Shown here: piece by piece, positions 778-10,059 of the stretch
How the letters are laid out: each line of letters starts with the position of its first letter
Numbering within the stretch: the first letter of the stretch is position 1
Assembly: GCA_023245115.1 (NCBI GenBank)
Contig: JAHFKX010000004.1
Location: 1-10,845, forward strand
DNA from: Candidatus Woesearchaeota archaeon
GTDB lineage: Archaea > Nanobdellota > Nanobdellia > UBA10117
DNA: 10,845 nucleotides
Direction: 5' to 3'
The notes under the pieces: model-generated
What the model saw: the letters and a program-made list of their open reading frames with translations, nothing else
What the model was told of the DNA's origin: nothing
Databases searched by the model: none
Program-made: the position numbers and the translations under genes

Positions 778-2349
778 TTACAGTGCCTTCGTAACGTACA
801 CACTCTCGTCTTCGTAGCTTAGCTTTCTGTAATACGCTTTCACACCAACGCCGGATAATATTTTTATGGATTTATATTTATTTTCCTTTGTAATTCTTTC
901 TGCCTCAGCAAGAAGTTTTTTTCCGTAGCCACGGTGTTGTGCGGCTAAAATATTATCGCCTGCCTCATTGCCAATCGCAACAGCTTCTCCGTAAACGTGT
1001 AGTTCCCTGACAAAAGCACCCTTTGCGCACAAACGCAGGCGCAAAAAGCCCAGCAGAATGTCCTGTTCTTTATCTTCGAAAGACAAAAATATTTCTTTCC
1101 CGCCACTTGCATCATAATCTTGCCTGCAAAGTGTGACAGCTTGCGGCAGTATGTGAAACTCATTCCACCTGTGGCCAACTTCTCGGCATCTGATACATCT
1201 GCATCTTATGTTGTTGCTCTTCAAATAATTTTGCACCATTTGGCGCAGATTTGTTGATTTGTAACCCGCTTCAACAAAGTTGCTAGGTATGTCACGCATT
1301 ATTCGTTTGATGCGAACGTACGGTGGAATGTGTTTTGTTTTTATGTCTGCCAGAACCTCAGCAATATATTCGTCATTTATGGGCTGGTATTCACCGTTAA
1401 TCCACTGCGTATAGAGTTCTGAGCCTTTGATAACGCCGCATGGATAAATTTTCAGGCCATCAGGTCTGAGATCTTCATCTTCAAAAATGATGCGAAACAT
1501 TTCTTTATCAAGTTCTTTGGAAGAGCCAGGCAGGCCAAGCATCATATGCAGGTCTACTTTAAATCCGGCGTCCTTCAACTCACGTATTGCGCGCTTCGCT
1601 TCTGATAAATTATGGCCACGCTTTATTTTTTCAAGAACGAATTCATAAATAGATTGCAGGCCAAGCTCGACGCGCGTAGCACCAAGCGTTAGCATGCGTT
1701 CAATGTGCTCTGTTTTACACCAGTCAGGCCGTGTTTCAATTATCAAGCTAATGACGCGGTTCTGCGCAGTTTCATTTAGTTTATGCGATTCAGCAATATT
1801 TTTTGTTGTGTGTTTCTTGCATGGTACATCCTTAGTGCAGCAGCCAAACTGGTTGAATGCATCAAAAATATTTTTTATGAAGTCGTATTGATAATCAAAA
1901 GGCAGCCACGTGAACGTCCCGCCTTGTACTATTACCTCATTTTTGTCAGTGTTATGCCCTACGTTGTGCAGCTGTGCCAGCCTATTCTGTACAATTTTAT
2001 ATTCGTCATAATTATTTCTGATTGCGCGCATTGTACTTGGTTCATGTCCGGTGTATGATTTAGGCGCATTCACAGCAGTCGGGCAGTAGGTACAGCGCCC
2101 AACGCAGCCGGCTGGCTTTGTCATGACAGCTATTGTGGAAACGCCGGAGATTGTTCTAGTCGGTTTTGTAATAAGCATTTGTTTTAATCGTGCCACGCGC
2201 CGGCCAGAGAAATTATTTAGGCCTTTTAGGATATCCGAGCTCAGTGGAATCTTCCCTTTGTTCTTTTCTGCCCAGCGTATTTTGGCTAGCTCTATTGAGC
2301 CCTTGTCCAGTTTTGGCAGGCCAAGCAGTACGTCAATTAGGTTTTGCAT
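778..2349 (-). CDS. elp3: Elp3-type radical SAM / GNAT acetyltransferase (tRNA wobble-uridine modification enzyme, Elongator subunit 3 homologue)
   Basis: 523 aa. Radical-SAM cysteine triad C-x4-C-x2-C (AGCVGRCTYCP). Elp3-typical CRCIRCRE cysteine motif. C-terminal GNAT motif A (QHRGYGKKLLAEAE). The length and domain order are characteristic of archaeal Elp3. Confidence 0.92.
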   Translation of the reverse strand: MQNLIDVLLGLPKLDKGSIELAKIRWAEKNKGKIPLSSDILKGLNNFSGRRVARLKQMLITKPTRTISGVSTIAVMTKPAGCVGRCTYCPTAVNAPKSYTGHEPSTMRAIRNNYDEYKIVQNRLAQLHNVGHNTDKNEVIVQGGTFTWLPFDYQYDFIKNIFDAFNQFGCCTKDVPCKKHTTKNIAESHKLNETAQNRVISLIIETRPDWCKTEHIERMLTLGATRVELGLQSIYEFVLEKIKRGHNLSEAKRAIRELKDAGFKVDLHMMLGLPGSSKELDKEMFRIIFEDEDLRPDGLKIYPCGVIKGSELYTQWINGEYQPINDEYIAEVLADIKTKHIPPYVRIKRIMRDIPSNFVEAGYKSTNLRQMVQNYLKSNNIRCRCIRCREVGHRWNEFHILPQAVTLCRQDYDASGGKEIFLSFEDKEQDILLGFLRLRLCAKGAFVRELHVYGEAVAIGNEAGDNILAAQHRGYGKKLLAEAERITKENKYKSIKILSGVGVKAYYRKLSYEDESVYVTKAL

Positions 2350-2399: not shown

Positions 2400-3293
2400 A
2401 TGGCCACTAAGAACAAACCATCTGTTTTGCCAGCACTTCTTATCACGGCGCTTATTTTGATAGCGGTTATTTATGTTGGCGTTAAGCTTTCTCAGGAAGA
2501 AAAAGTTCTCGCGCCAACTATGGCAGTTATAACGCTGGACAGCAGCATTGATTCAAATGTTGCGAAGGACATGGTGAAACTGCTGAGAAAGGCAGACAAA
2601 GACAATGATGTAAAAGCAATAATTATCGAGATAAATTCACCCGGAGGAACAGTAGTAGCATCAAAAGAAATTGCAACTGCAGTTAAGCAGACCAGCAAGC
2701 CGACAGTTGCGTGGATTCGCGAAGTTGGCGCATCAGGTGCGTACTGGATAGCTTCAGCCTCAAATAAAATTGTTGCTGATGAAGCTTCTATAACTGGCTC
2801 AATTGGCGTTACCGGTTCTTATTTAGAATACTCAAAATTATTTGACAAATATGGAGTGACATACAACAGCCTGACGTCTGGCAAGTACAAGGACACTGGC
2901 TCGCCGTACAAGGAACTTTCTGACAGCGATAGGTCATATTTACTCAGCCTGATTAATGCGCTGAAAGTACAGTTCGTCCAGGCAGTTGCCGAAAACAGGC
3001 ATCTTACTTTCGATCAGGTAAATAATCTTGCAACTGGGCAAGTCATGCTCGGGGCTGACGCGCAGAAATTTAAGCTCATAGATACGCTCGGTGGCAAGAA
3101 AGAAGCCCAGCAGGTTGCAGAAAAGCTGGCTGGCCTCAAGAGCTCAAGGCTAGTGCAATATGAGCAGTCACAGAGCATTTTCGGTTCTTTAAGTTCTGAA
3201 GCACAGTCACTTGCCTACTGGGCAGGCCGCGGCATTGGAGATTCAGTAAAGCCGCAGGCAGATTCTGAATTAAAATTAGTCGCAGAGATTTAG
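2400..3293 (+). CDS. sppA: Signal peptide peptidase SppA, 36K type (peptidase family S49)
   Basis: 297 aa with an N-terminal TM helix (PSVLPALLITALILIAVIYVGV). S49 motifs present: IIIEINSPGG, GASGAYWIASA (nucleophile Ser context), TGSIGV and GKYKD (general-base Lys context). Confidence 0.88.
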   Translation: MATKNKPSVLPALLITALILIAVIYVGVKLSQEEKVLAPTMAVITLDSSIDSNVAKDMVKLLRKADKDNDVKAIIIEINSPGGTVVASKEIATAVKQTSKPTVAWIREVGASGAYWIASASNKIVADEASITGSIGVTGSYLEYSKLFDKYGVTYNSLTSGKYKDTGSPYKELSDSDRSYLLSLINALKVQFVQAVAENRHLTFDQVNNLATGQVMLGADAQKFKLIDTLGGKKEAQQVAEKLAGLKSSRLVQYEQSQSIFGSLSSEAQSLAYWAGRGIGDSVKPQADSELKLVAEI

Positions 3294-3317
3294 TCAGTTA
3301 GCTGATACTTATCGTGC

Positions 3318-3330
3318 AAAGGTTTTTAAA
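3318..3330 (+). promoter_or_regulatory. BRE/TATA-like promoter core AAAGGTTTTTAAA
   Basis: The 11-mer AAAGGTTTTTA is identical to those at 5222 and 9130. TATA octamer 3323-3330 lies 22 nt upstream of ATG 3353. Confidence 0.45.
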
Positions 3331-3352
3331 ATCGATAACTTTGTTGTTAATT

Positions 3353-3784
3353 ATGAATGCGTCTAAAGCAATATATGTGGTATGCGGCGATAATAATAAA
3401 ACCAGAGTGTTAGCCCGGCGCAAACAACATATCGAGGGCAGGCGTCCGCGAGTGGCAAAATATTACGTGTTAATTGATGCTGCCTGTTTAGTTGGCTGCC
3501 CGCACTTTAGCACAGTAGTAGATGATCGCATACGCTGCAGATACGGTGGATGGTATGATAAAAAGCAAATGTACGCTGCCTCAGAATTAGATTTTATACT
3601 TGTTGAACAAGTAACACCCGCGCAAAAAGAAGCGGCTGCGAGGATCCGCGTAAAAGGGTTAGACCTTCAGCAAAAATTGAGAGATGAAAATGGGGCGTCA
3701 CTTCTCAAAGAAGAAGGTGCTGCAGATGTTTTAAAACGCATGAGAGAAATTGAAGAAAAGAAAGGTTTTGTTAGGTCACAGTAA
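3353..3784 (+). CDS. Hypothetical protein (143 aa from ATG 3353; track start 3314 is a GTG inside the promoter)
   Basis: Long ORF. The start is chosen from the TATA-to-ATG spacing. Sequence begins MNASKAIYVVCGDNNK..., has a Cys/His cluster (CLVGCPH...C) and a charged helical C-terminus. I recognise no family. Confidence 0.6.
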   Translation: MNASKAIYVVCGDNNKTRVLARRKQHIEGRRPRVAKYYVLIDAACLVGCPHFSTVVDDRIRCRYGGWYDKKQMYAASELDFILVEQVTPAQKEAAARIRVKGLDLQQKLRDENGASLLKEEGAADVLKRMREIEEKKGFVRSQ

Positions 3785-3794
3785 ATTGTCAATG

Positions 3795-4349
3795 CTATTT
3801 AACATCCATAAAACTCGTCAGTGCAGGCCCCTGCGGCTGCGCCACCCTGCCAAGCTTTTCCATGGAGAGCTTCACGATTGGCATGCCGGGTTTTAGCACT
3901 ATTGGAATTTTGTTTGCGTTAAAAATTTCCAGCGTTATAAAACCAGAAAAATTTGGGTCGACAAACCCTCCGGAACAAAAAACCTGCAGGCCAAGCCGGC
4001 CAAGTGATGCGCGCGCATTTAGAATTCCCGTGTAATTGTTTGGCATCGTGATTTTTTCTTTTGTAACTCCAATTACAAACTCGCCCGGCGCGACCGCGTA
4101 AGAGCCGCCGTTCTGAACTTCAATCGTTGCGAATTTCTGCGCGGAGGTGAGCATTGTTTCCTCGTTTAACTTGAATTTTGGGTCAGCCGGATCGATAAAA
4201 GCAGAGCCAGCAGATACTAAAGTTGTAAATTTGTTTCCAAGCTTCAGCTCAACGTGCAGCTGCCGCATAGCCCCGCGATCGAACGGCTCGATTTTAAGAA
4301 CGCCACCTTTAATCAGTTCGAGAATCTCTTCGCCAAATAAGTATGCCAT
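3795..4349 (-). CDS. dcd: dCTP deaminase / dUTPase-fold enzyme (Dcd family)
   Basis: Family motifs present: GVLKIEPF, HVELKLGN, ARASLGRLGL and GFVDPNFSGFITLEIFN (catalytic Glu context). I prefer ATG 4349 (MAYLFGEEILE...) over the track's GTG 4361, because TATA TTTTTATC (4371-4378) lies 21 nt upstream of 4349. Confidence 0.85.
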   Translation of the reverse strand: MAYLFGEEILELIKGGVLKIEPFDRGAMRQLHVELKLGNKFTTLVSAGSAFIDPADPKFKLNEETMLTSAQKFATIEVQNGGSYAVAPGEFVIGVTKEKITMPNNYTGILNARASLGRLGLQVFCSGGFVDPNFSGFITLEIFNANKIPIVLKPGMPIVKLSMEKLGRVAQPQGPALTSFMDVK

Positions 4350-4370
4350 ACCTAATAGCACATAGAAAAA

Positions 4371-4384: not shown

Positions 4385-5152
4385 TCATGGCCTGCTAGTG
4401 TTTGATTCAGCAGCGTTTTGTTCTAATTGTTTGAGTGCCTGTAAAATTGCGATTGTTCTTGCCGCGCTAACATATAAGCCAGAGCCTGTTGCCAGCAGCG
4501 TTTCATTCGCATAGATTCCAACTGTAGCTATCGCGCCTTTTTCTGCTGGAAGTAATTTATAATTTGGAAATTTTTTATACGTATCCCAAACCAATCGTAA
4601 CAATTTTGACTCGTTAGTATGATATGGGGCATGAATATTTTCAAGTGCCTGCCCAATATGTGATATGACATGTTTGATTACAAATTTTCTCGCGGTTTCT
4701 AAATCGCGGCCAGCGTCTAGGTATATTGCGTAGGTGACTGCTTCAAATACATCAGCAGGGAATGTTCTGCCATCTTTTTTGCTGCGATAACGTAAGACAT
4801 ATTCGCGCACGTCCAGAGAGCTGGCAATCTCTGAAAAAAATTTATTGCTTACTAAAGTATTTTGAATTTGATTAAACAGCACTACATCATCCATGGGCAT
4901 TAAGTTTACAAGTTCTTCAGTTACAATCAAACCAAGGAGCTTGTCGCCCAAAAGCTCTAACGTTTTGGCTTTAGGCATAAATTTGGCATCCACGCGCCAG
5001 TCCAGCGCCGCAAGAAGTAAATCTTTGTCTTTGAATGTGTAGCCGAGTTTTTCTTCGAGGTCTGATAGCTTTGGTGCGCTGTCCGTAGCACAGCGGCCGC
5101 AATTCCCACCAATCATTAAAGAACTATGTTCTGTGCAAAACTGCCCATCCAT
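4385..5152 (-). CDS. rnc: Ribonuclease III (bacterial-type, with a short Cys/His N-terminal extension and a degenerate dsRBD-like C-terminus)
   Basis: RNase III signature block LELLGDKLLGLIVTEEL (compare ERLEFLGD). Second catalytic block ADVFEAVTYAIYLDAG. All four acidic catalytic positions are present. The C-terminal ~90 aa have an alpha-beta-beta-beta-alpha pattern (NYKLLPAEKGAIATVGIYANETLLATGSG...AARTIAILQALKQL). Confidence 0.8.
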   Translation of the reverse strand: MDGQFCTEHSSLMIGGNCGRCATDSAPKLSDLEEKLGYTFKDKDLLLAALDWRVDAKFMPKAKTLELLGDKLLGLIVTEELVNLMPMDDVVLFNQIQNTLVSNKFFSEIASSLDVREYVLRYRSKKDGRTFPADVFEAVTYAIYLDAGRDLETARKFVIKHVISHIGQALENIHAPYHTNESKLLRLVWDTYKKFPNYKLLPAEKGAIATVGIYANETLLATGSGLYVSAARTIAILQALKQLEQNAAESNTSRP

Positions 5153-6042: not shown

Positions 6043-6837
6043 TTATCCCTTCTTCCAGGCCATCTCGAACAACTCTTGCAGGGCTGAAGCAAAGTAAGGT
6101 GTGTTTACCCACATGCCCAAATCATAAGTTGGGTGAACGTCCTTGTCGTCCATCAGCATGAACAAGACCTGCTTGCCATCTATGATGCAAAATCTTGCGT
6201 TCATATCTTTGACGTCCTTTATTTCCGCAACACCCTGAAGTTTGTCTATGACTTCCTTCGTTTTGTCGTTGATAGGCGCGGCAATTTTTACCTTCACTCC
6301 CCTGGCCTTTGCCTTGTCCAGCAATGGCTTGAGTGCACGCACCTTTCTGATAAGGCCGTCTTCAGTTGTTACAATGGCAATTGACTTTTCTGCTTCTTTG
6401 ACAAGCATTGAGAGGTGGTCGTATAGGTTGTGCCTGCCTTTTAGCGCGCCCGAAAAGTCAGTAATCTGCATTGGCTCAATTCCCTGCTTGTAAAGCTGCT
6501 GCAACTCCTTCAGAATGTCCGAAGTGTGCAAGCCTTCGAGCCTCTTTGTTCTCTCTTCAGTGATTTCTGCAAGCCTCTTTGTGACGCGGTCCAAAACTTC
6601 AGTCGGGGCGATCGCCATGTACTTGATTGGCTTTTCGGGTTTAACAATAACAAATCCTTTCCTTTCCAGTGATTCTAAAACATCATACGTTCTTGAACGC
6701 GGTACGTCCGCTATATCCGACAACTCGCCAGCGGTAGAAACCCCGCGGGACAAAAGTGCAGTCCATAATTTTACTTCGTACAAATTTAGGCTAAACGCTC
6801 GCCTTAGCTTACTTAAAAATTCTTCATTCACGATCAT
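6043..6837 (-). CDS. TrmB-family transcriptional regulator (N-terminal winged HTH plus C-terminal TrmB-type effector domain)
   Basis: 264 aa. The N-terminus LYEVKLWTALLSRGVSTAGELSDIADVPRSRTYDVLESLERKGFV is the typical TrmB wHTH. It is followed by a coiled linker and a C-terminal domain of TrmB-like length. Confidence 0.88.
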   Translation of the reverse strand: MIVNEEFLSKLRRAFSLNLYEVKLWTALLSRGVSTAGELSDIADVPRSRTYDVLESLERKGFVIVKPEKPIKYMAIAPTEVLDRVTKRLAEITEERTKRLEGLHTSDILKELQQLYKQGIEPMQITDFSGALKGRHNLYDHLSMLVKEAEKSIAIVTTEDGLIRKVRALKPLLDKAKARGVKVKIAAPINDKTKEVIDKLQGVAEIKDVKDMNARFCIIDGKQVLFMLMDDKDVHPTYDLGMWVNTPYFASALQELFEMAWKKG

Positions 6838-6843
6838 TTTCTT

Positions 6844-6852
6844 ACCTCCACC
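6844..6852 (-). promoter_or_regulatory. Shine-Dalgarno site GGTGGAGGT for the TrmB-family gene
   Basis: The GGAGG core (plus 6845-6849) lies 7 nt upstream of ATG 6837. There is no TATA box at the 21-22 nt position used by the other genes. Confidence 0.6.
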
Positions 6853-6971
6853 TTACTCTCTGTTTGGAAATTCACAAAATTTACTTCTGCGAAGCCCCAA
6901 ATCTTTACTACCTTGGATGGTCGAACCATCAATGGCCTATTCATTTTACGAACACTACTACTTAATATATG

Positions 6972-6993
6972 TTACGGTTGTGTGTAACCATAA
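6972..6993 (-). other. Stem-loop, 8 bp with a 6-nt loop
   Basis: TTACGGTT gtgtgt AACCATAA. The single C6975-A6990 mismatch on the plus strand is a G-U wobble on the minus strand. Confidence 0.35.
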
Positions 6994-7139
6994 AGTTCCG
7001 ATTCCAGAATTGACTTTTAACAGTGTCAAAATTGAAATCGTAACTGGCGGATACACATTTTTCATTCAGGATTGTTTCTAAAACCGAAGTACTTAAATAA
7101 CTTGCTAAAATTTGTTACTGTGTAGTAATATATTTTGTA

Positions 7140-7447
7140 AAATAGAGATTGGAAACTCTATTTCGCGGAATATATCGCGATTTATGAAAAATGCGCTAAA
7201 ATCCCGCTCTTCAGAGCGCGGGATGTGACAAAATGTTTCATTTTGCCACCTCGCCGAACAAGTTCGGCGTTGAAGCGCATTTTCCATTCCAAAAACTTGC
7301 CATTTAAATGAGCATCGTAAAACCACGGGCTTCAACGAAAATGCGTAGCATTTTCGGGTGCTGGAAAATCCCATAGGATTTTTCACATAGCCCGTGGATA
7401 TGAAAAAATGTTTACATTTTTCCATCCGCAAACTCCTAGAGTTTGCG
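7140..7447 (-). ncRNA. Candidate structured non-coding RNA of unknown class (about 12 helices, one 4-way and one 3-way junction)
   Basis: Helices read directly from the sequence. H1 7140-7163 (8 bp). H2 7163-7180 (5 bp). 4-way junction with closing stem 7184-7196/7275-7287, enclosing hairpins 7201-7224, 7225-7249 and 7252-7269. H4 7298-7314. 3-way junction with closing stem 7323-7331/7389-7397, enclosing 7336-7356 and 7364-7384. H6 7400-7425 (11 bp). H7 7427-7447 (9 bp). About two thirds of the nucleotides are paired. A-C mismatches at 7187/7284, 7228/7246 and 7403/7422 are G-U wobbles only on the minus strand. Confidence 0.55.
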
Positions 7448-7470
7448 TTAGATGCGAGCAGCGAGTTTTT

Positions 7471-7478
7471 GTTATATC
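7471..7478 (-). promoter_or_regulatory. Weak TATA-like element (minus strand GATATAAC) that could drive the structured RNA independently
   Basis: Applying the window's 21-nt TATA-to-start spacing predicts a start at about 7449, 1-2 nt before the first helix (7447). The box is weaker than the others. Confidence 0.25.
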
Positions 7479-7495
7479 GTTTAAGTAAATAATTT

Positions 7496-8221
7496 TTAAT
7501 TCATAACCTGAGATTCTTGGTATAAATTAACTTCTGTGTCTCCATTCAGCCAAATAAACTTGCAATTCCCTTTGGCACGCCGCGCAATCTCGCTAAGCGA
7601 TTCTTTTGATGGGCTTTTGAAGACACAGCGTTGCGCGCCTTCCCCGCTGTACTTGCCGGCAGATTCAAAAACGAATGTGGAATCTTCTACGCCTTGAAAT
7701 GCATACCAACTAACAGTGCCTTTAATAGTTATATCGCAGTGCTGAATATATCTGAGACATTTTGGCGGCAAGTCTGCAACAATCGTCAGCTTCAGCGGCT
7801 TATTGCTGGTGCCAGCTATGCGTGTCTGTATGTTTAATGACCGCAGGTGTGTTAGGTTCAGCGTAAAATTATTATAATTTTTGTTGTAAGCCTGCTGGAC
7901 AAGCAAGGCTAAGAAGTTGCCTGTGCGTTCAAAGTTTTCATAGTCTTCATAAGTAACAACGCGGCTTACAAATTCATTAATTGTGTGGGGCGTAACTTTT
8001 ATTATTCCTAAGATAGTTGCGGCGTACCCTGGCGCTGCTGCATCAACATAACGTGGCGGGAATAGTTGTGATATGTTTTGGCGTAGGTATTTCTCGTAAA
8101 CACGAAACAACTTTTCCAGCCGGCTTTCTAGCTTTTCATCTATCTTGACCTTGAGCTGTTTCTCTTCATTCAGCGGCTCCAAATCGCTTAATATGCCCCG
8201 CAGGTTGTTGGATTTTTTCAT
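7496..8221 (-). CDS. Hypothetical protein, paralog B of a tandem pair (241 aa)
   Basis: Long ORF. Clear homology to the upstream gene: LSDLEPLNEEKQLKVKIDEKLESRLEKLFRVYEK vs LRDLEEPTPEKQLRVEVDEDLDDKLEKIFKLYKK; VTPHTINEFVSRV vs ITPHIIEEFVLRL; TGNFLALLVQQAYNKNYNNFTLNL vs TGVFISTLISISYKQGHNNFHIPL; GNCKFIWLNGD vs EGCKFYLIKDG. Its ATG overlaps the upstream stop (ATGA at 8218-8221). Confidence 0.75.
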   Translation of the reverse strand: MKKSNNLRGILSDLEPLNEEKQLKVKIDEKLESRLEKLFRVYEKYLRQNISQLFPPRYVDAAAPGYAATILGIIKVTPHTINEFVSRVVTYEDYENFERTGNFLALLVQQAYNKNYNNFTLNLTHLRSLNIQTRIAGTSNKPLKLTIVADLPPKCLRYIQHCDITIKGTVSWYAFQGVEDSTFVFESAGKYSGEGAQRCVFKSPSKESLSEIARRAKGNCKFIWLNGDTEVNLYQESQVMN

Positions 8222-8937
8222 GTTTCTGCAATTAATTCCTCTTTCCCGTCTTTTATTAGGTAGAATTTGCAGCCCTCGCCAGCACCCTTTGCGTAGGTAT
8301 CTAATACGTCCCTGCGCTCGCTTTTGAGTGTACAGTTAGTTGCATAGCCAGTAATTCTGCCGTCAAGGCCAGTCCAGTCAGTTGGCATGTCAGTCAGCTT
8401 CACAGTTAAATTCTTTGACCTATCTAAACAGCCATAGTCCGGCGAGCCGACTACAGAAATTTCAATGGGCTTGCCTGTTTCTCCATCCAGACGGCCGCAA
8501 AGATACATTATAGATTCCAAACGCTCGCTGGCAATCAAAGGGATGTGAAAATTGTTGTGGCCTTGTTTGTATGATATGCTAATCAAAGTGGAAATAAATA
8601 CCCCTGTGTTTTCGGAAAAATTATGAGCAGTTTTTGATTTGTAATATTTTTCAAGCCTTAAAACAAATTCTTCAATTATGTGTGGAGTTATAGTAACTTG
8701 TTTTGCCAGCGTTTTCAGCCCTTTTTCTAATCCGCGTGCCAGCACCCATGAATCAAATTTATATTCATATTCCGGGAATCTAGCAGCATATGTTTGTTCC
8801 AATGCGAGTTTTTTGTATAATTTAAAAATCTTTTCAAGCTTGTCATCTAAATCTTCATCTACCTCGACCCTGAGCTGTTTTTCCGGCGTTGGTTCTTCTA
8901 AATCTCTAAGTAATTGCCGAGCTGCATCCCGTTTCAT
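8218..8937 (-). CDS. Hypothetical protein, paralog A of a tandem pair (239 aa)
   Basis: Long ORF with a TATA box 21 nt upstream of its ATG. Charged helical N-terminus and a Cys-containing, beta-rich C-terminal half. Paralogous to 7496-8221. I recognise no family. Confidence 0.75.
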   Translation of the reverse strand: MKRDAARQLLRDLEEPTPEKQLRVEVDEDLDDKLEKIFKLYKKLALEQTYAARFPEYEYKFDSWVLARGLEKGLKTLAKQVTITPHIIEEFVLRLEKYYKSKTAHNFSENTGVFISTLISISYKQGHNNFHIPLIASERLESIMYLCGRLDGETGKPIEISVVGSPDYGCLDRSKNLTVKLTDMPTDWTGLDGRITGYATNCTLKSERRDVLDTYAKGAGEGCKFYLIKDGKEELIAET

Positions 8938-9164: not shown

Positions 9165-9671
9165 ATGAATAATAATAAATTTTCGTTCAAAGATGGGCTG
9201 GTACATAGGCTTAGGTCGCAGTTTGGGTATGGACTATCACAAACTCCGCAAGGATATTTGTTGGCAACAAGACGCAATATTGGGCCGTTTGGTGGGCTGT
9301 CTGTTTTTTGTATCGGCAACGCGGATGGCCAGACAGAAACACTGCAGTCCATCACTAATTTTATAAATAGCACGTATGATCTTGGCGAAGAAGAACTTAG
9401 ACGCGTAGCAAAGATGTCGCCGGTTAGGTCGCGTGTTTATTTTTCTGTATTAGTATCAGAATCACATTTTCCAGAAGATTTAATAAGTATTTTAAAAGAT
9501 ACTCATGAGAATCGTAATATATTTGCATACGAAATTCCTGTTTTAGTCGAGGCGCAGCCCTTCAAAATAACTAAAATATTTCCATGGCAGTTTTCTGGTA
9601 TGGGGCTTTTTCCAGTATTCTGGTTGCACTTAAGAAGCGTATTAAAAGACACGCCAATTAGCGCACGCTAA
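9165..9671 (+). CDS. Hypothetical protein (168 aa)
   Basis: ORF with the conserved promoter at leaderless spacing and no family I recognise. Its 3' end overlaps the convergent 133-aa gene by 14 nt. Confidence 0.6.
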   Translation: MNNNKFSFKDGLVHRLRSQFGYGLSQTPQGYLLATRRNIGPFGGLSVFCIGNADGQTETLQSITNFINSTYDLGEEELRRVAKMSPVRSRVYFSVLVSESHFPEDLISILKDTHENRNIFAYEIPVLVEAQPFKITKIFPWQFSGMGLFPVFWLHLRSVLKDTPISAR

Positions 9672-10059
9672 TTCCAACTGCGTCTTCAGAACACTGGTTT
9701 GTACGGGGAAGGCAGCGAGATGGCCGGATTTGTTCAACCGTAAAGGTTGGCCCCTTACCACCATTAAAAATCCACGCAGAGCCAAGGGTGAATGCAGCTG
9801 GCCTGAATTTTGCCCCGTTGAGTTCGAACTGCAGAGTTGTAGTTACGCGCATTAAACCCTGTTTACTCATATTTACATTTATACTAACGAGATAAATTTT
9901 ATATGTGTCGCCTTTAACAATTTTATTGTCTACATATGTGAACGGCGCATTCTTTGTTACTACGCCTTTGTTTTGCAGTCCTATAAGTTGTGCATGAGCA
10001 ACAGGCACACTGAACAGCAGAATTGCTAATAGCAATATAATCATATGCTGCGATTTCAT
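9658..10059 (-). CDS. Small secreted hypothetical protein (133 aa) with an N-terminal signal peptide
   Basis: MKSQHMIILLLAILLFSVPVAHA|QLIG has the n/h/c regions and an AxA-type cleavage site. The mature part is beta-rich. TATA lies 21 nt upstream of the ATG. Confidence 0.7.
   Translation of the reverse strand: MKSQHMIILLLAILLFSVPVAHAQLIGLQNKGVVTKNAPFTYVDNKIVKGDTYKIYLVSINVNMSKQGLMRVTTTLQFELNGAKFRPAAFTLGSAWIFNGGKGPTFTVEQIRPSRCLPRTNQCSEDAVGISVR
9684..9707. repeat. Direct repeat core, copy 2 (CTTCAGAACACTGGTTTGTACGGG)
   Basis: Lies inside the 3' end of CDS 9658-10059 and matches 9081-9104. Confidence 0.7.

Follow-up and report, generated by a model that had tools for sequence, protein, structure and literature searches.

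What kind of element is a run of some eleven helices packed into about 300 nt between two archaeal genes, and is it an RNA gene? This question is raised by positions 7140-7447 (308 nt, hereafter the array) of a 10.8-kb stretch of Candidatus Woesearchaeota DNA (the window, by which we mean that stretch at its full length), where an earlier note had proposed a structured minus-strand RNA. The host belongs to the DPANN archaea and is of the Woesearchaeota/Nanoarchaeota type; its TrmB-family protein has relatives in 51 such metagenome-assembled genomes (MAGs). The array sits inside a gap, confirmed to be 658 nt long, that separates a gene for a 241-aa protein from the TrmB gene. Our answer, which is tentative and to which we give a rough probability of 0.45, is that the array is a cluster of nested inverted repeats that is specific to its lineage and evolves fast, probably a 3' untranslated region (3' UTR) or insulator between an operon of two orphan paralogs and the TrmB promoter. 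It does not look like a conserved RNA gene or a conserved new RNA class, and the earlier interpretation as a structured RNA is partly supported. Hairpins are numbered H1 to H11 in minus-strand order; L003, L004, L005, L058, L059 and L062 are comparison loci, and L001 is a Logan contig from the same sample.

Architecture and folding strength of the array

Read along the minus strand, the array and its inner edge consist of the following parts:

7427-7447, minus strand: H1, hairpin CGCAAACUC-UAG-GAGUUUGCG, 9 bp, the first helix past the stop codon of the 241-aa gene
7400-7425, minus strand: H2, a copy of the hairpin unit described below, AUGGAAAAAUG...CAUUUUUUCAU, 11-12 bp, with a G-U pair at 7403/7422 and a U6 tract in its 3' arm
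7323-7397, minus strand: three-way-junction domain, a 9-bp outer stem (7389-7397/7323-7331) around H4 and H5, 63% palindromic overall
7362-7385, plus strand: H4, an inverted unit copy, UGGAAAAUCC-CAUA-GGAUUUUUCA, 10 bp including a G-T wobble at 7364/7383
7336-7356, strand unspecified: H5, perfect palindrome CGAAAATGC-NNN-GCATTTTCG, 9 bp, with a GAAAAT core as in the unit
7288-7322, strand unspecified: weakly structured linker with the palindrome CATTTAAATG and an A5/T5 run at 7291-7295
7184-7287, minus strand: four-way-junction ('cloverleaf-like') domain, a 14-bp outer stem (H6) enclosing H7, H8 and H9
7252-7269, inside the four-way junction: H7
7225-7249, inside the four-way junction: H8, a unit copy with a G-U pair at 7228/7246
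7201-7224, inside the four-way junction: H9
7163-7180, strand unspecified: H10, hairpin CGCG-N8-CGCG
7140-7163, strand unspecified: H11, AAATAGAG-N8-CTCTATTT, 8 bp
7132-7143, strand unspecified: small palindrome ATTTT-NN-AAAAT

On the minus strand the array folds with a minimum free energy of -124 kcal/mol, against -76.3 +/- 4.5 kcal/mol for shuffled sequences (z -10.6, with 0 of 100 shuffles as good), and on the plus strand it reaches -115.8 kcal/mol (z -9.25 vs shuffles), which bears out the claim that a dense multi-helix structure is encoded here; DNA folding parameters give z -12.6 and -12.9 for the two strands. Paired bases make up 214 of the 308 nt (69%) in 11 real helices and some small ones, in good agreement with the dozen helices and the two-thirds pairing described before. 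Both long-range stems that had been said to close multi-branch junctions are present as well, one of 9 bp (7323-7331/7389-7397) and one measured here at 14 bp (7184-7197/7274-7287). The latter, H6, is itself a copy of the unit (AUGGAAAAUGCGCU/AGCGCAUUUUUCAU) with a G-U pair at 7187/7284, and the 104-nt four-way domain that it closes shares 69% identity with its own reverse complement. All stems of the array are perfect or near-perfect and their loops measure 3-4 nt; the CAAG/CUUG loop reported at 7259-7262 was found again.

Nowhere else in the 10.8 kb is a 300-nt stretch strongly structured. When 300-nt tiles were scanned along both strands, those off the array stayed within about z -2.1 to +2.2, and only two tiles, both overlapping it, fell lower. 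Of the 13 perfect hairpins of 7 bp or longer in the whole window, seven lie in the 308 nt of the array, whereas a background set of 456 kb of related DPANN loci has 0.71 such hairpins per kb and no cluster of five or more.

Folding of this strength (z -10.6) and the two long-range stems of 9 and 14 bp, each of which closes a multi-branch junction, speak for a novel lineage-specific gene for a structured non-coding RNA (ncRNA) of about 300 nt, that is, an RNA transcribed from the minus strand from its own promoter, acting in trans or as a scaffold, and perhaps born de novo through hairpin duplication. We regard such a gene as unlikely. Functional RNAs typically have bulges, internal loops and GNRA or UNCG loops, and none of these occurs in the predicted fold of the array.

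Hairpin modules and the question of the strand

One of the modules of the array is a hairpin unit, UGGAAAAU(variable top)AUUUUUCA, whose third pair is a G-U and which occurs 4-5 times and in both orientations: H2, H8 and the outer stem H6 in minus-strand orientation, H4 in the opposite one. H5 has the GAAAAUGC core of the unit in common, and the remaining modules are GC-rich hairpins. H2 and H8, taken with 4-nt flanks, are 86% identical, and the four bases by which their stems differ amount to two fully compensated pairs, with no uncompensated change. A hierarchy of symmetries is superimposed on this paralogy, as 7128-7175, 7184-7287, 7323-7397 and 7362-7424 each resemble their own reverse complement. 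The array is, in other words, made of palindromes within palindromes that derive from a few hairpin modules.

This make-up has consequences for the strand, which had been taken as fixed by G-U wobbles. The three A-C positions of the plus strand on which that argument rested (7187/7284, 7228/7246 and 7403/7422) are all real, but the inventory was incomplete, since it overlooked the plus-strand G-T pair at 7364/7383 in the inverted unit and several in the stem around 7125-7178; a fuller count of plus-strand G-T pairs adds 7358/7388 and puts at four those in the extended 7125-7178 stem. Because the three minus-strand wobbles occupy the same position in three paralogous copies of the unit, they count as roughly one event, and since they were inherited from one unit whose inverted copy, H4, points the opposite way (on the minus strand H4 forms just 7 bp with an A-C mismatch), they do not fix the strand. 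Folding is no better guide, as with flanks included (7120-7480) the plus strand reaches -135.8 and the minus strand -137.1 kcal/mol. Contrary to the earlier argument for RNA, perfect stems, short loops, the lack of GNRA or UNCG loops and equal foldability of the two strands suit DNA palindromes equally well. For an ncRNA gene, in which G-U pairs would be confined to one strand, the evidence on the strand therefore cancels out. The compensated differences between the paralogous hairpins, with the G-U wobble retained among them, remain the best argument for selection on pairing and hence for such a gene.

The same features recall a different class of element. Oriented, imperfect palindromic units that occur in both orientations in extragenic DNA define the repetitive extragenic palindromes (REP), the bacterial interspersed mosaic elements (BIME) and the REP doublets forming hairpins (REPINs), and H2, H8, H6 and H4 correspond to this description. 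It is conceivable, though in our judgement quite unlikely, that the array is a mobile or selfish palindromic element, either REP/BIME- or REPIN-like or a hairpin miniature inverted-repeat transposable element (MITE) of the IS200/IS605 type, which inserted at the margin of a variable island and in part within its own sequence. An imperfect unit with a conserved mismatch, present in both orientations and nested as a hairpin within the loop of another, would agree with this origin. However, no further copy of the unit exists in the rest of the window or in the 456 kb of related loci, and a metagenome scan with the H2/H8 unit pattern gave 0 matches. No gene for a REP-associated tyrosine transposase (RAYT), a Y1 (IS200-type) transposase or any other transposase was seen among the open reading frames (ORFs) of the window.

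Repeated palindromes could also be read at the DNA level, as binding sites of a protein in a replication origin or iteron cluster, whether chromosomal or belonging to an integrated element, or in a set of operators. The decamer ATGAAAAATG/CATTTTTCAT and its close variants are found seven times in about 370 nt and in both orientations, the region is AT-rich, and the gene of a DNA-binding regulator adjoins it. We nonetheless consider this very improbable: no Orc1/Cdc6, Rep or integrase is encoded among the window proteins, no dyad element resembling an origin recognition box was seen on reading the sequence, the stems differ in sequence, which makes a single binding protein unlikely, compensated changes in the arms are not expected of dimer-binding sites, and the promoter/operator motif of the TrmB gene lies elsewhere (6958-6988) and not in the array.

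Two observations on the unit may be recorded here. The 5' arm of H8 (7225-7255, minus strand) reads GAGGUGGCAAAAUG, a good Shine-Dalgarno sequence followed by an AUG, and opens a 19-codon ORF, MKHFVTSRALKSGILAHFS. The unit also resembles the start region of the TrmB gene (GGUGGAGGUAAGAAAAUG, 6835-6851), to which its 3' arms are 76-80% complementary, a likeness that we judged generic.

Comparison with the nearest genomes and template switching

Homologous loci had been proposed as a test. If the array were a conserved RNA, it should be found in close relatives; it is not. The two closest genomes, L003 and L004, encode TrmB proteins 94% and 93% identical to that of the window, and share synteny and nucleotide similarity with it from 1795 to about 7176, where both end. 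Their spacer upstream of the TrmB gene is about 300 nt long and is preceded by an unrelated gene, no counterpart of 7180-7447 exists in either of them, and the array is missing from the 51 TrmB loci, which were taken from GTDB species representatives. Derivation of the array from the 3' end of the upstream gene of L003 was considered and rejected, the nhmmer hint being no better than for shuffles. The inner boundary of the array is thereby set by a conserved tract:

6838-7176, minus strand: conserved proximal intergenic region (TrmB promoter/operator and leader), common to L003, L004 and L005

The absence from the nearest genomes counts against an ncRNA gene, as does the fact that the DNA of H10 and H11, which can still be aligned to L003 and L004, does not form these hairpins there. 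The H10 stretch is a different palindrome, AGAATATATTCT, in both relatives. As for H11, its 3' arm CTCTATTT is identical in them, where only five of the 8 positions of the 5' arm pair with it. The window differs by three substitutions (7161, 7158 and 7156), all of them in the 5' arm, which bring pairing to 8 of 8. Window-specific differences are in fact crowded into this stretch, with nine in 7137-7176 vs one in the next 45 nt or so. The small palindrome at 7132-7143 differs in a further way, its 2-nt spacer being inverted: the minus strand reads ATTTT-GT-AAAAT in L003 and L004 and ATTTT-AC-AAAAT in the window. Clustered changes in one arm, as in H11, and inversion of a spacer, as at 7132-7143, are published signatures of template switching between the arms of inverted repeats (PMC5453318, PMC8794818, PMC8604942). 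Such a process yields perfect stems and apparently compensatory changes without selection.

Within the conserved tract, a 20-nt BRE/TATA-like (B recognition element and TATA box) motif, CCGTAACATATATTAAGTAG, lies upstream of the TrmB gene at 6958-6977 (minus strand), and recurs, identical or with at most 2 mismatches, in 13 of the 51 loci, predominantly those of closer relatives, at 33-121 nt before the ATG. It overlaps the palindrome GTTAC-N8-GTAAC (6971-6988) and does not recur in the array. We take 6958-6988 to be probably the TrmB promoter with an autoregulatory operator, outside the array. The fourth wobble hairpin of the earlier note (6975/6990) falls at this place; a palindrome is indeed there, but as a probable promoter/operator it does not belong to the array. 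The window exceeds the relatives by about 50 nt in its TrmB leader, and the leader hairpin at 6916-6930 differs from theirs in sequence; palindrome turnover therefore seems to be a trait of the intergenic DNA of this lineage. That leader hairpin follows directly on a conserved CATTGA in the window (GATGGT-CGA-ACCATC), in L003 (about 4950-4985; CGAATAG...CTATTCG) and in L005 (about 4850-4890), and is not clearly present in L004; it may be a cis-regulatory hairpin conserved in position.

Assembly breaks and population variation

In two further assemblies of this sample, contigs stop at the array or within it, those of Logan at about 7164 and about 7446 and those of ENA at 7335 and 7459. The Logan contig L001, which ends at the edge of the array, matches the window base for base over 2.87 kb except at 7164 and 7134 (its own positions 1 and 31), and at each of these two sites its base is that of a relative: L003 and L004 likewise have an A at 7164, and L004 has a G at 7134. 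A less derived version of the region may thus be present in a co-occurring strain, and the contig breaks indicate either micro-diversity or repetition at the array.

Contigs that stop at the edges of the array, as contigs do at repeats or insertion polymorphisms, and the position of the array at a synteny breakpoint might also be understood if a mobile element had been inserted. The 7-nt sequence TATATCG occurs as an exact direct repeat on either side (7171-7177 and 7473-7479) of 295 nt (7178-7472) that contain H1-H9, and could be a target-site duplication or a chance occurrence in AT-rich DNA; once 7178-7472 is removed, the alignment to L003 runs slightly further. This extension is weak, however, no terminal inverted repeats were seen around the array, and the assembly breaks (about 7164 and about 7446) do not match the positions of the putative target-site duplication.

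Searches for known RNAs, proteins and homologues

The view that the array belongs to no known RNA class held up, as covariance-model scans against Rfam gave no family. Rfam 15 run over the whole window at E<=1 returned no match to the array and only a sub-threshold hit at 3553-3779, and a search of 7050-7520 (471 nt) at E<=10 with lax filters gave four hits that scored 14-17 bits, where the gathering scores are 38-95. The hit at 3553-3779 (minus strand, inside the ORF 3314-3784) is to TeloSII_ncR30, with 24 bits vs a gathering score of 86 and E 0.04, and is almost certainly due to chance. No tRNA or tmRNA was found by ARAGORN.

The lack of an Rfam match under permissive filters, and of a homologue in the collections searched (proteins as a proxy, metagenomes, phages and plasmids), weighs further against an ncRNA gene. 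Scanning metagenomes with a conserved-flank pattern produced 7 chance matches in which similarity did not extend, blastn against phages and plasmids found nothing matching the array, and pattern scans of viral contigs yielded only chance hairpins, in an RNA-phage-like contig and in giant-virus contigs, that are not homologous. One of these, the giant-virus MAG contig L062, has at 6900-7250 an intergenic run of long perfect hairpins with duplicated GTATAGAAAATGC...GCATTTTCTAT stems, which are analogous to the 3'-end hairpins of giant viruses and unrelated to the array in sequence.

An open frame does span the array:

7431-7105, minus strand: 108-aa ORF with a TTG start

That this frame could be a protein-coding gene, an outcome that the earlier note had named as one that would speak against its own proposal, we consider practically negligible. 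It has no match in Pfam, NCBIfam, PHROG or PADLOC (nor did the neighbours give anything relevant), and its sequence is a direct read-out of the palindromes. The concatenated six-frame translation of 7100-7480, the ORF itself included, found no similar protein among 5.8 billion protein clusters, from which it follows that the ORF does not figure in that collection as a called gene. The gene tables of two ENA contigs list no gene in the gap. This lack of ORF support in the region is, for its part, in keeping with an ncRNA gene.

Transcription and possible role

The array begins (H1, 7447) 49 nt past the stop codon of the 241-aa gene (7496-7498, minus strand), with which the two-gene operon of orphan paralogs (8937-7496) ends. 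Between the two lies a short spacer:

7448-7495, minus strand: spacer from the 241-aa stop codon to H1, with no T run of 5 or more and a local duplication, GAGTTTGCGTTAGAT / GAGTTTTTGTTATAT

Runs of at least five U on the minus strand occur at 7403-7408 (U6), 7291-7295 and 7187-7191, with none from the stop codon to H1, and a UUUU follows H11. Since no oligo-T terminator separates the upstream operon from the array, read-through into it as the 3' UTR of that operon appears most likely. An ncRNA gene would have its own promoter, and a weak TATA-like GATATAA is located in the spacer at 7472-7478 (minus strand), about 25-30 nt upstream of H1; the UUUU after H11 likewise counts in favour of such a gene.

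The explanation that we favour, a nested inverted-repeat cluster in a 3' UTR, may accordingly be pictured as follows. A few hairpin modules would have been multiplied locally into palindromes inside palindromes, and template-switch-type events during replication would have kept or made their arms complementary. The array would then be transcribed by read-through from the orphan-paralog operon, and the RNA could fold into a compact multi-hairpin shape. Its role might be a passive one, in which the U5-U6 tracts embedded in the hairpins would terminate or insulate transcription ahead of the TrmB promoter and the structure would protect the 3' end. A terminator or insulator is expected to follow immediately on a gene of its own strand and to contain oligo-U tracts, and the array has both this position and these tracts.

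Several points weigh against this explanation. Transcription of the array and its role as terminator or insulator are steps that we infer. A scan for terminators of the bacterial type (hairpin plus U) found none, and eleven helices far exceed what termination needs. The G-T/G-U mismatch survives in four unit copies, between compensated positions, which simple homogenisation of the arms does not explain and which hints at selection on pairing, be it in a functional RNA or in a DNA hairpin recognised by a protein. Finally, the direction of the changes in H10 and H11 is not polarised by an outgroup, because L005 and the more distant loci do not align in that stretch.

Gene neighbourhood

The genes around the array are as follows:

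778-2349, minus strand: Elp3-like radical SAM enzyme (Pfam match)
2400-3293, plus strand: S49 peptidase (Pfam match)
3795-4361, minus strand: dCTP deaminase (Pfam match)
4385-5152, minus strand: RNase III, bacterial-type (Pfam match)
6043-6837, minus strand: TrmB-family regulator (Pfam match)
7496-8221 and 8218-8937, minus strand: two overlapping paralogous genes (241 aa and 239 aa), function not assigned, 34% identical to each other

The 90% cluster of the TrmB protein consists of this single sequence. The family of the 241- and 239-aa proteins is sparse, with 487 remote relatives, and the C-terminal part resembles the FwdC/GXGXG beta-helix; it was found in none of the 51 TrmB loci. Members in other DPANN contigs (L058, 4183-5726; L059, 3406-5723) form tandem runs beside RhuM, Bro-N and AAA_5 genes, and the distribution suggests a gene family of variable or mobile islands. 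Whether the array travels with this family was also considered, and the two family loci retrieved have no hairpin cluster; as the family is also missing from the TrmB loci, a partnership between these genes and an RNA finds no support.

A bacterial-type RNase III in an archaeal (DPANN) genome is worth recording, the synteny around it being kept in contigs of the same sample. The enzyme could act on double-stranded RNA, long stems for example; those of the array, however, are shorter than its typical substrates. Beyond the paralogs, 9658-10059 (minus strand) and 10113 to beyond 10845 (plus strand) encode two predicted secreted proteins with signal-peptide-like N-termini, the second of which contains calcium-binding DxDxDG repeats of a thrombospondin-type-3-like kind. 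These two proteins and the orphan paralogs make up a lineage-specific surface-protein island past the synteny break.

Likeness to known systems

The array is best classed among the intergenic palindrome clusters, as a variant and a singleton without conservation. Bacterial REP/BIME elements and the REPINs mobilised by RAYTs resemble it in their short imperfect palindromic units, in the conserved mismatch that gives these an orientation, in the use of both orientations, in clustering in intergenic DNA just 3' of genes and in unit pairs that form larger hairpins. REP/BIME elements can also stabilise or terminate upstream transcripts. REP, BIME and REPIN sequences have tens to hundreds of dispersed copies per genome, whereas the array is known from one locus, without dispersed copies in the sequence available (10.8 kb of the genome). 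It differs from them also in its DPANN host, in that no RAYT or IS200-type gene was seen, and in its long-range stems, which make multi-branch junctions.

AT-rich, perfect hairpins that lie in intergenic DNA right downstream of genes and can fold on both strands are also known from the palindromic 3' ends of genes that follow the 'hairpin rule' of mimivirus. Those occur once per gene end and throughout the genome, unlike the array, a single nested cluster that shares no sequence similarity with them. Archaeal termination needs oligo-U only. Hairpins made by template switching (Loytynoja and Goldman 2017, PMC5453318; Monttinen and Loytynoja 2022, PMC8794818), including those of de novo microRNAs (PMC10710096), are similar in the clustered one-arm changes that give an exact reverse complement, in the inverted spacer of a small palindrome, in the perfect stems and in the short loops. 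The published cases are single hairpins, however, and the array would be an iterated, nested pile of about 11 helices in 300 nt, in which the direction of change is not polarised.

Large prokaryotic ncRNAs (OLE, GOLLD, ROOL, HEARO/omega RNA and raiA, and the archaeal signal recognition particle and RNase P RNAs) are alike in having about 300 nt, many helices, multi-branch junctions and an intergenic location. These RNAs are conserved across genera and contain bulges, internal loops and conserved single-stranded nucleotides. The array, in contrast, matches no covariance model and is a singleton with perfect stems.

Implications

If the array is a mere pile-up of palindromes, it is a local curiosity, and marks a hotspot where template switching and local duplication can give rise to multi-branched folds some 300 nt long that have no conserved function. 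A lesson in caution would come with it, as extreme folding z-scores and 'compensatory' changes between paralogous hairpins do not prove an RNA gene. A bolder proposal, which we hold to be improbable, is that the array is either a functional multi-branched RNA that arose de novo by iterated hairpin duplication and template switching, or the first REPIN-like palindrome family in DPANN archaea. In the former case, were the array transcribed and functional, we would be witnessing how a complex structured RNA is born de novo in an archaeon with a reduced genome, its architecture caught while emerging from intergenic DNA that had not been hairpins. In the latter, were it multi-copy, the family would be self-propagating, its nesting would stem from hairpins inserting into the loops of hairpins, and the range of REPIN-like selfish hairpins would be extended to the DPANN archaea.

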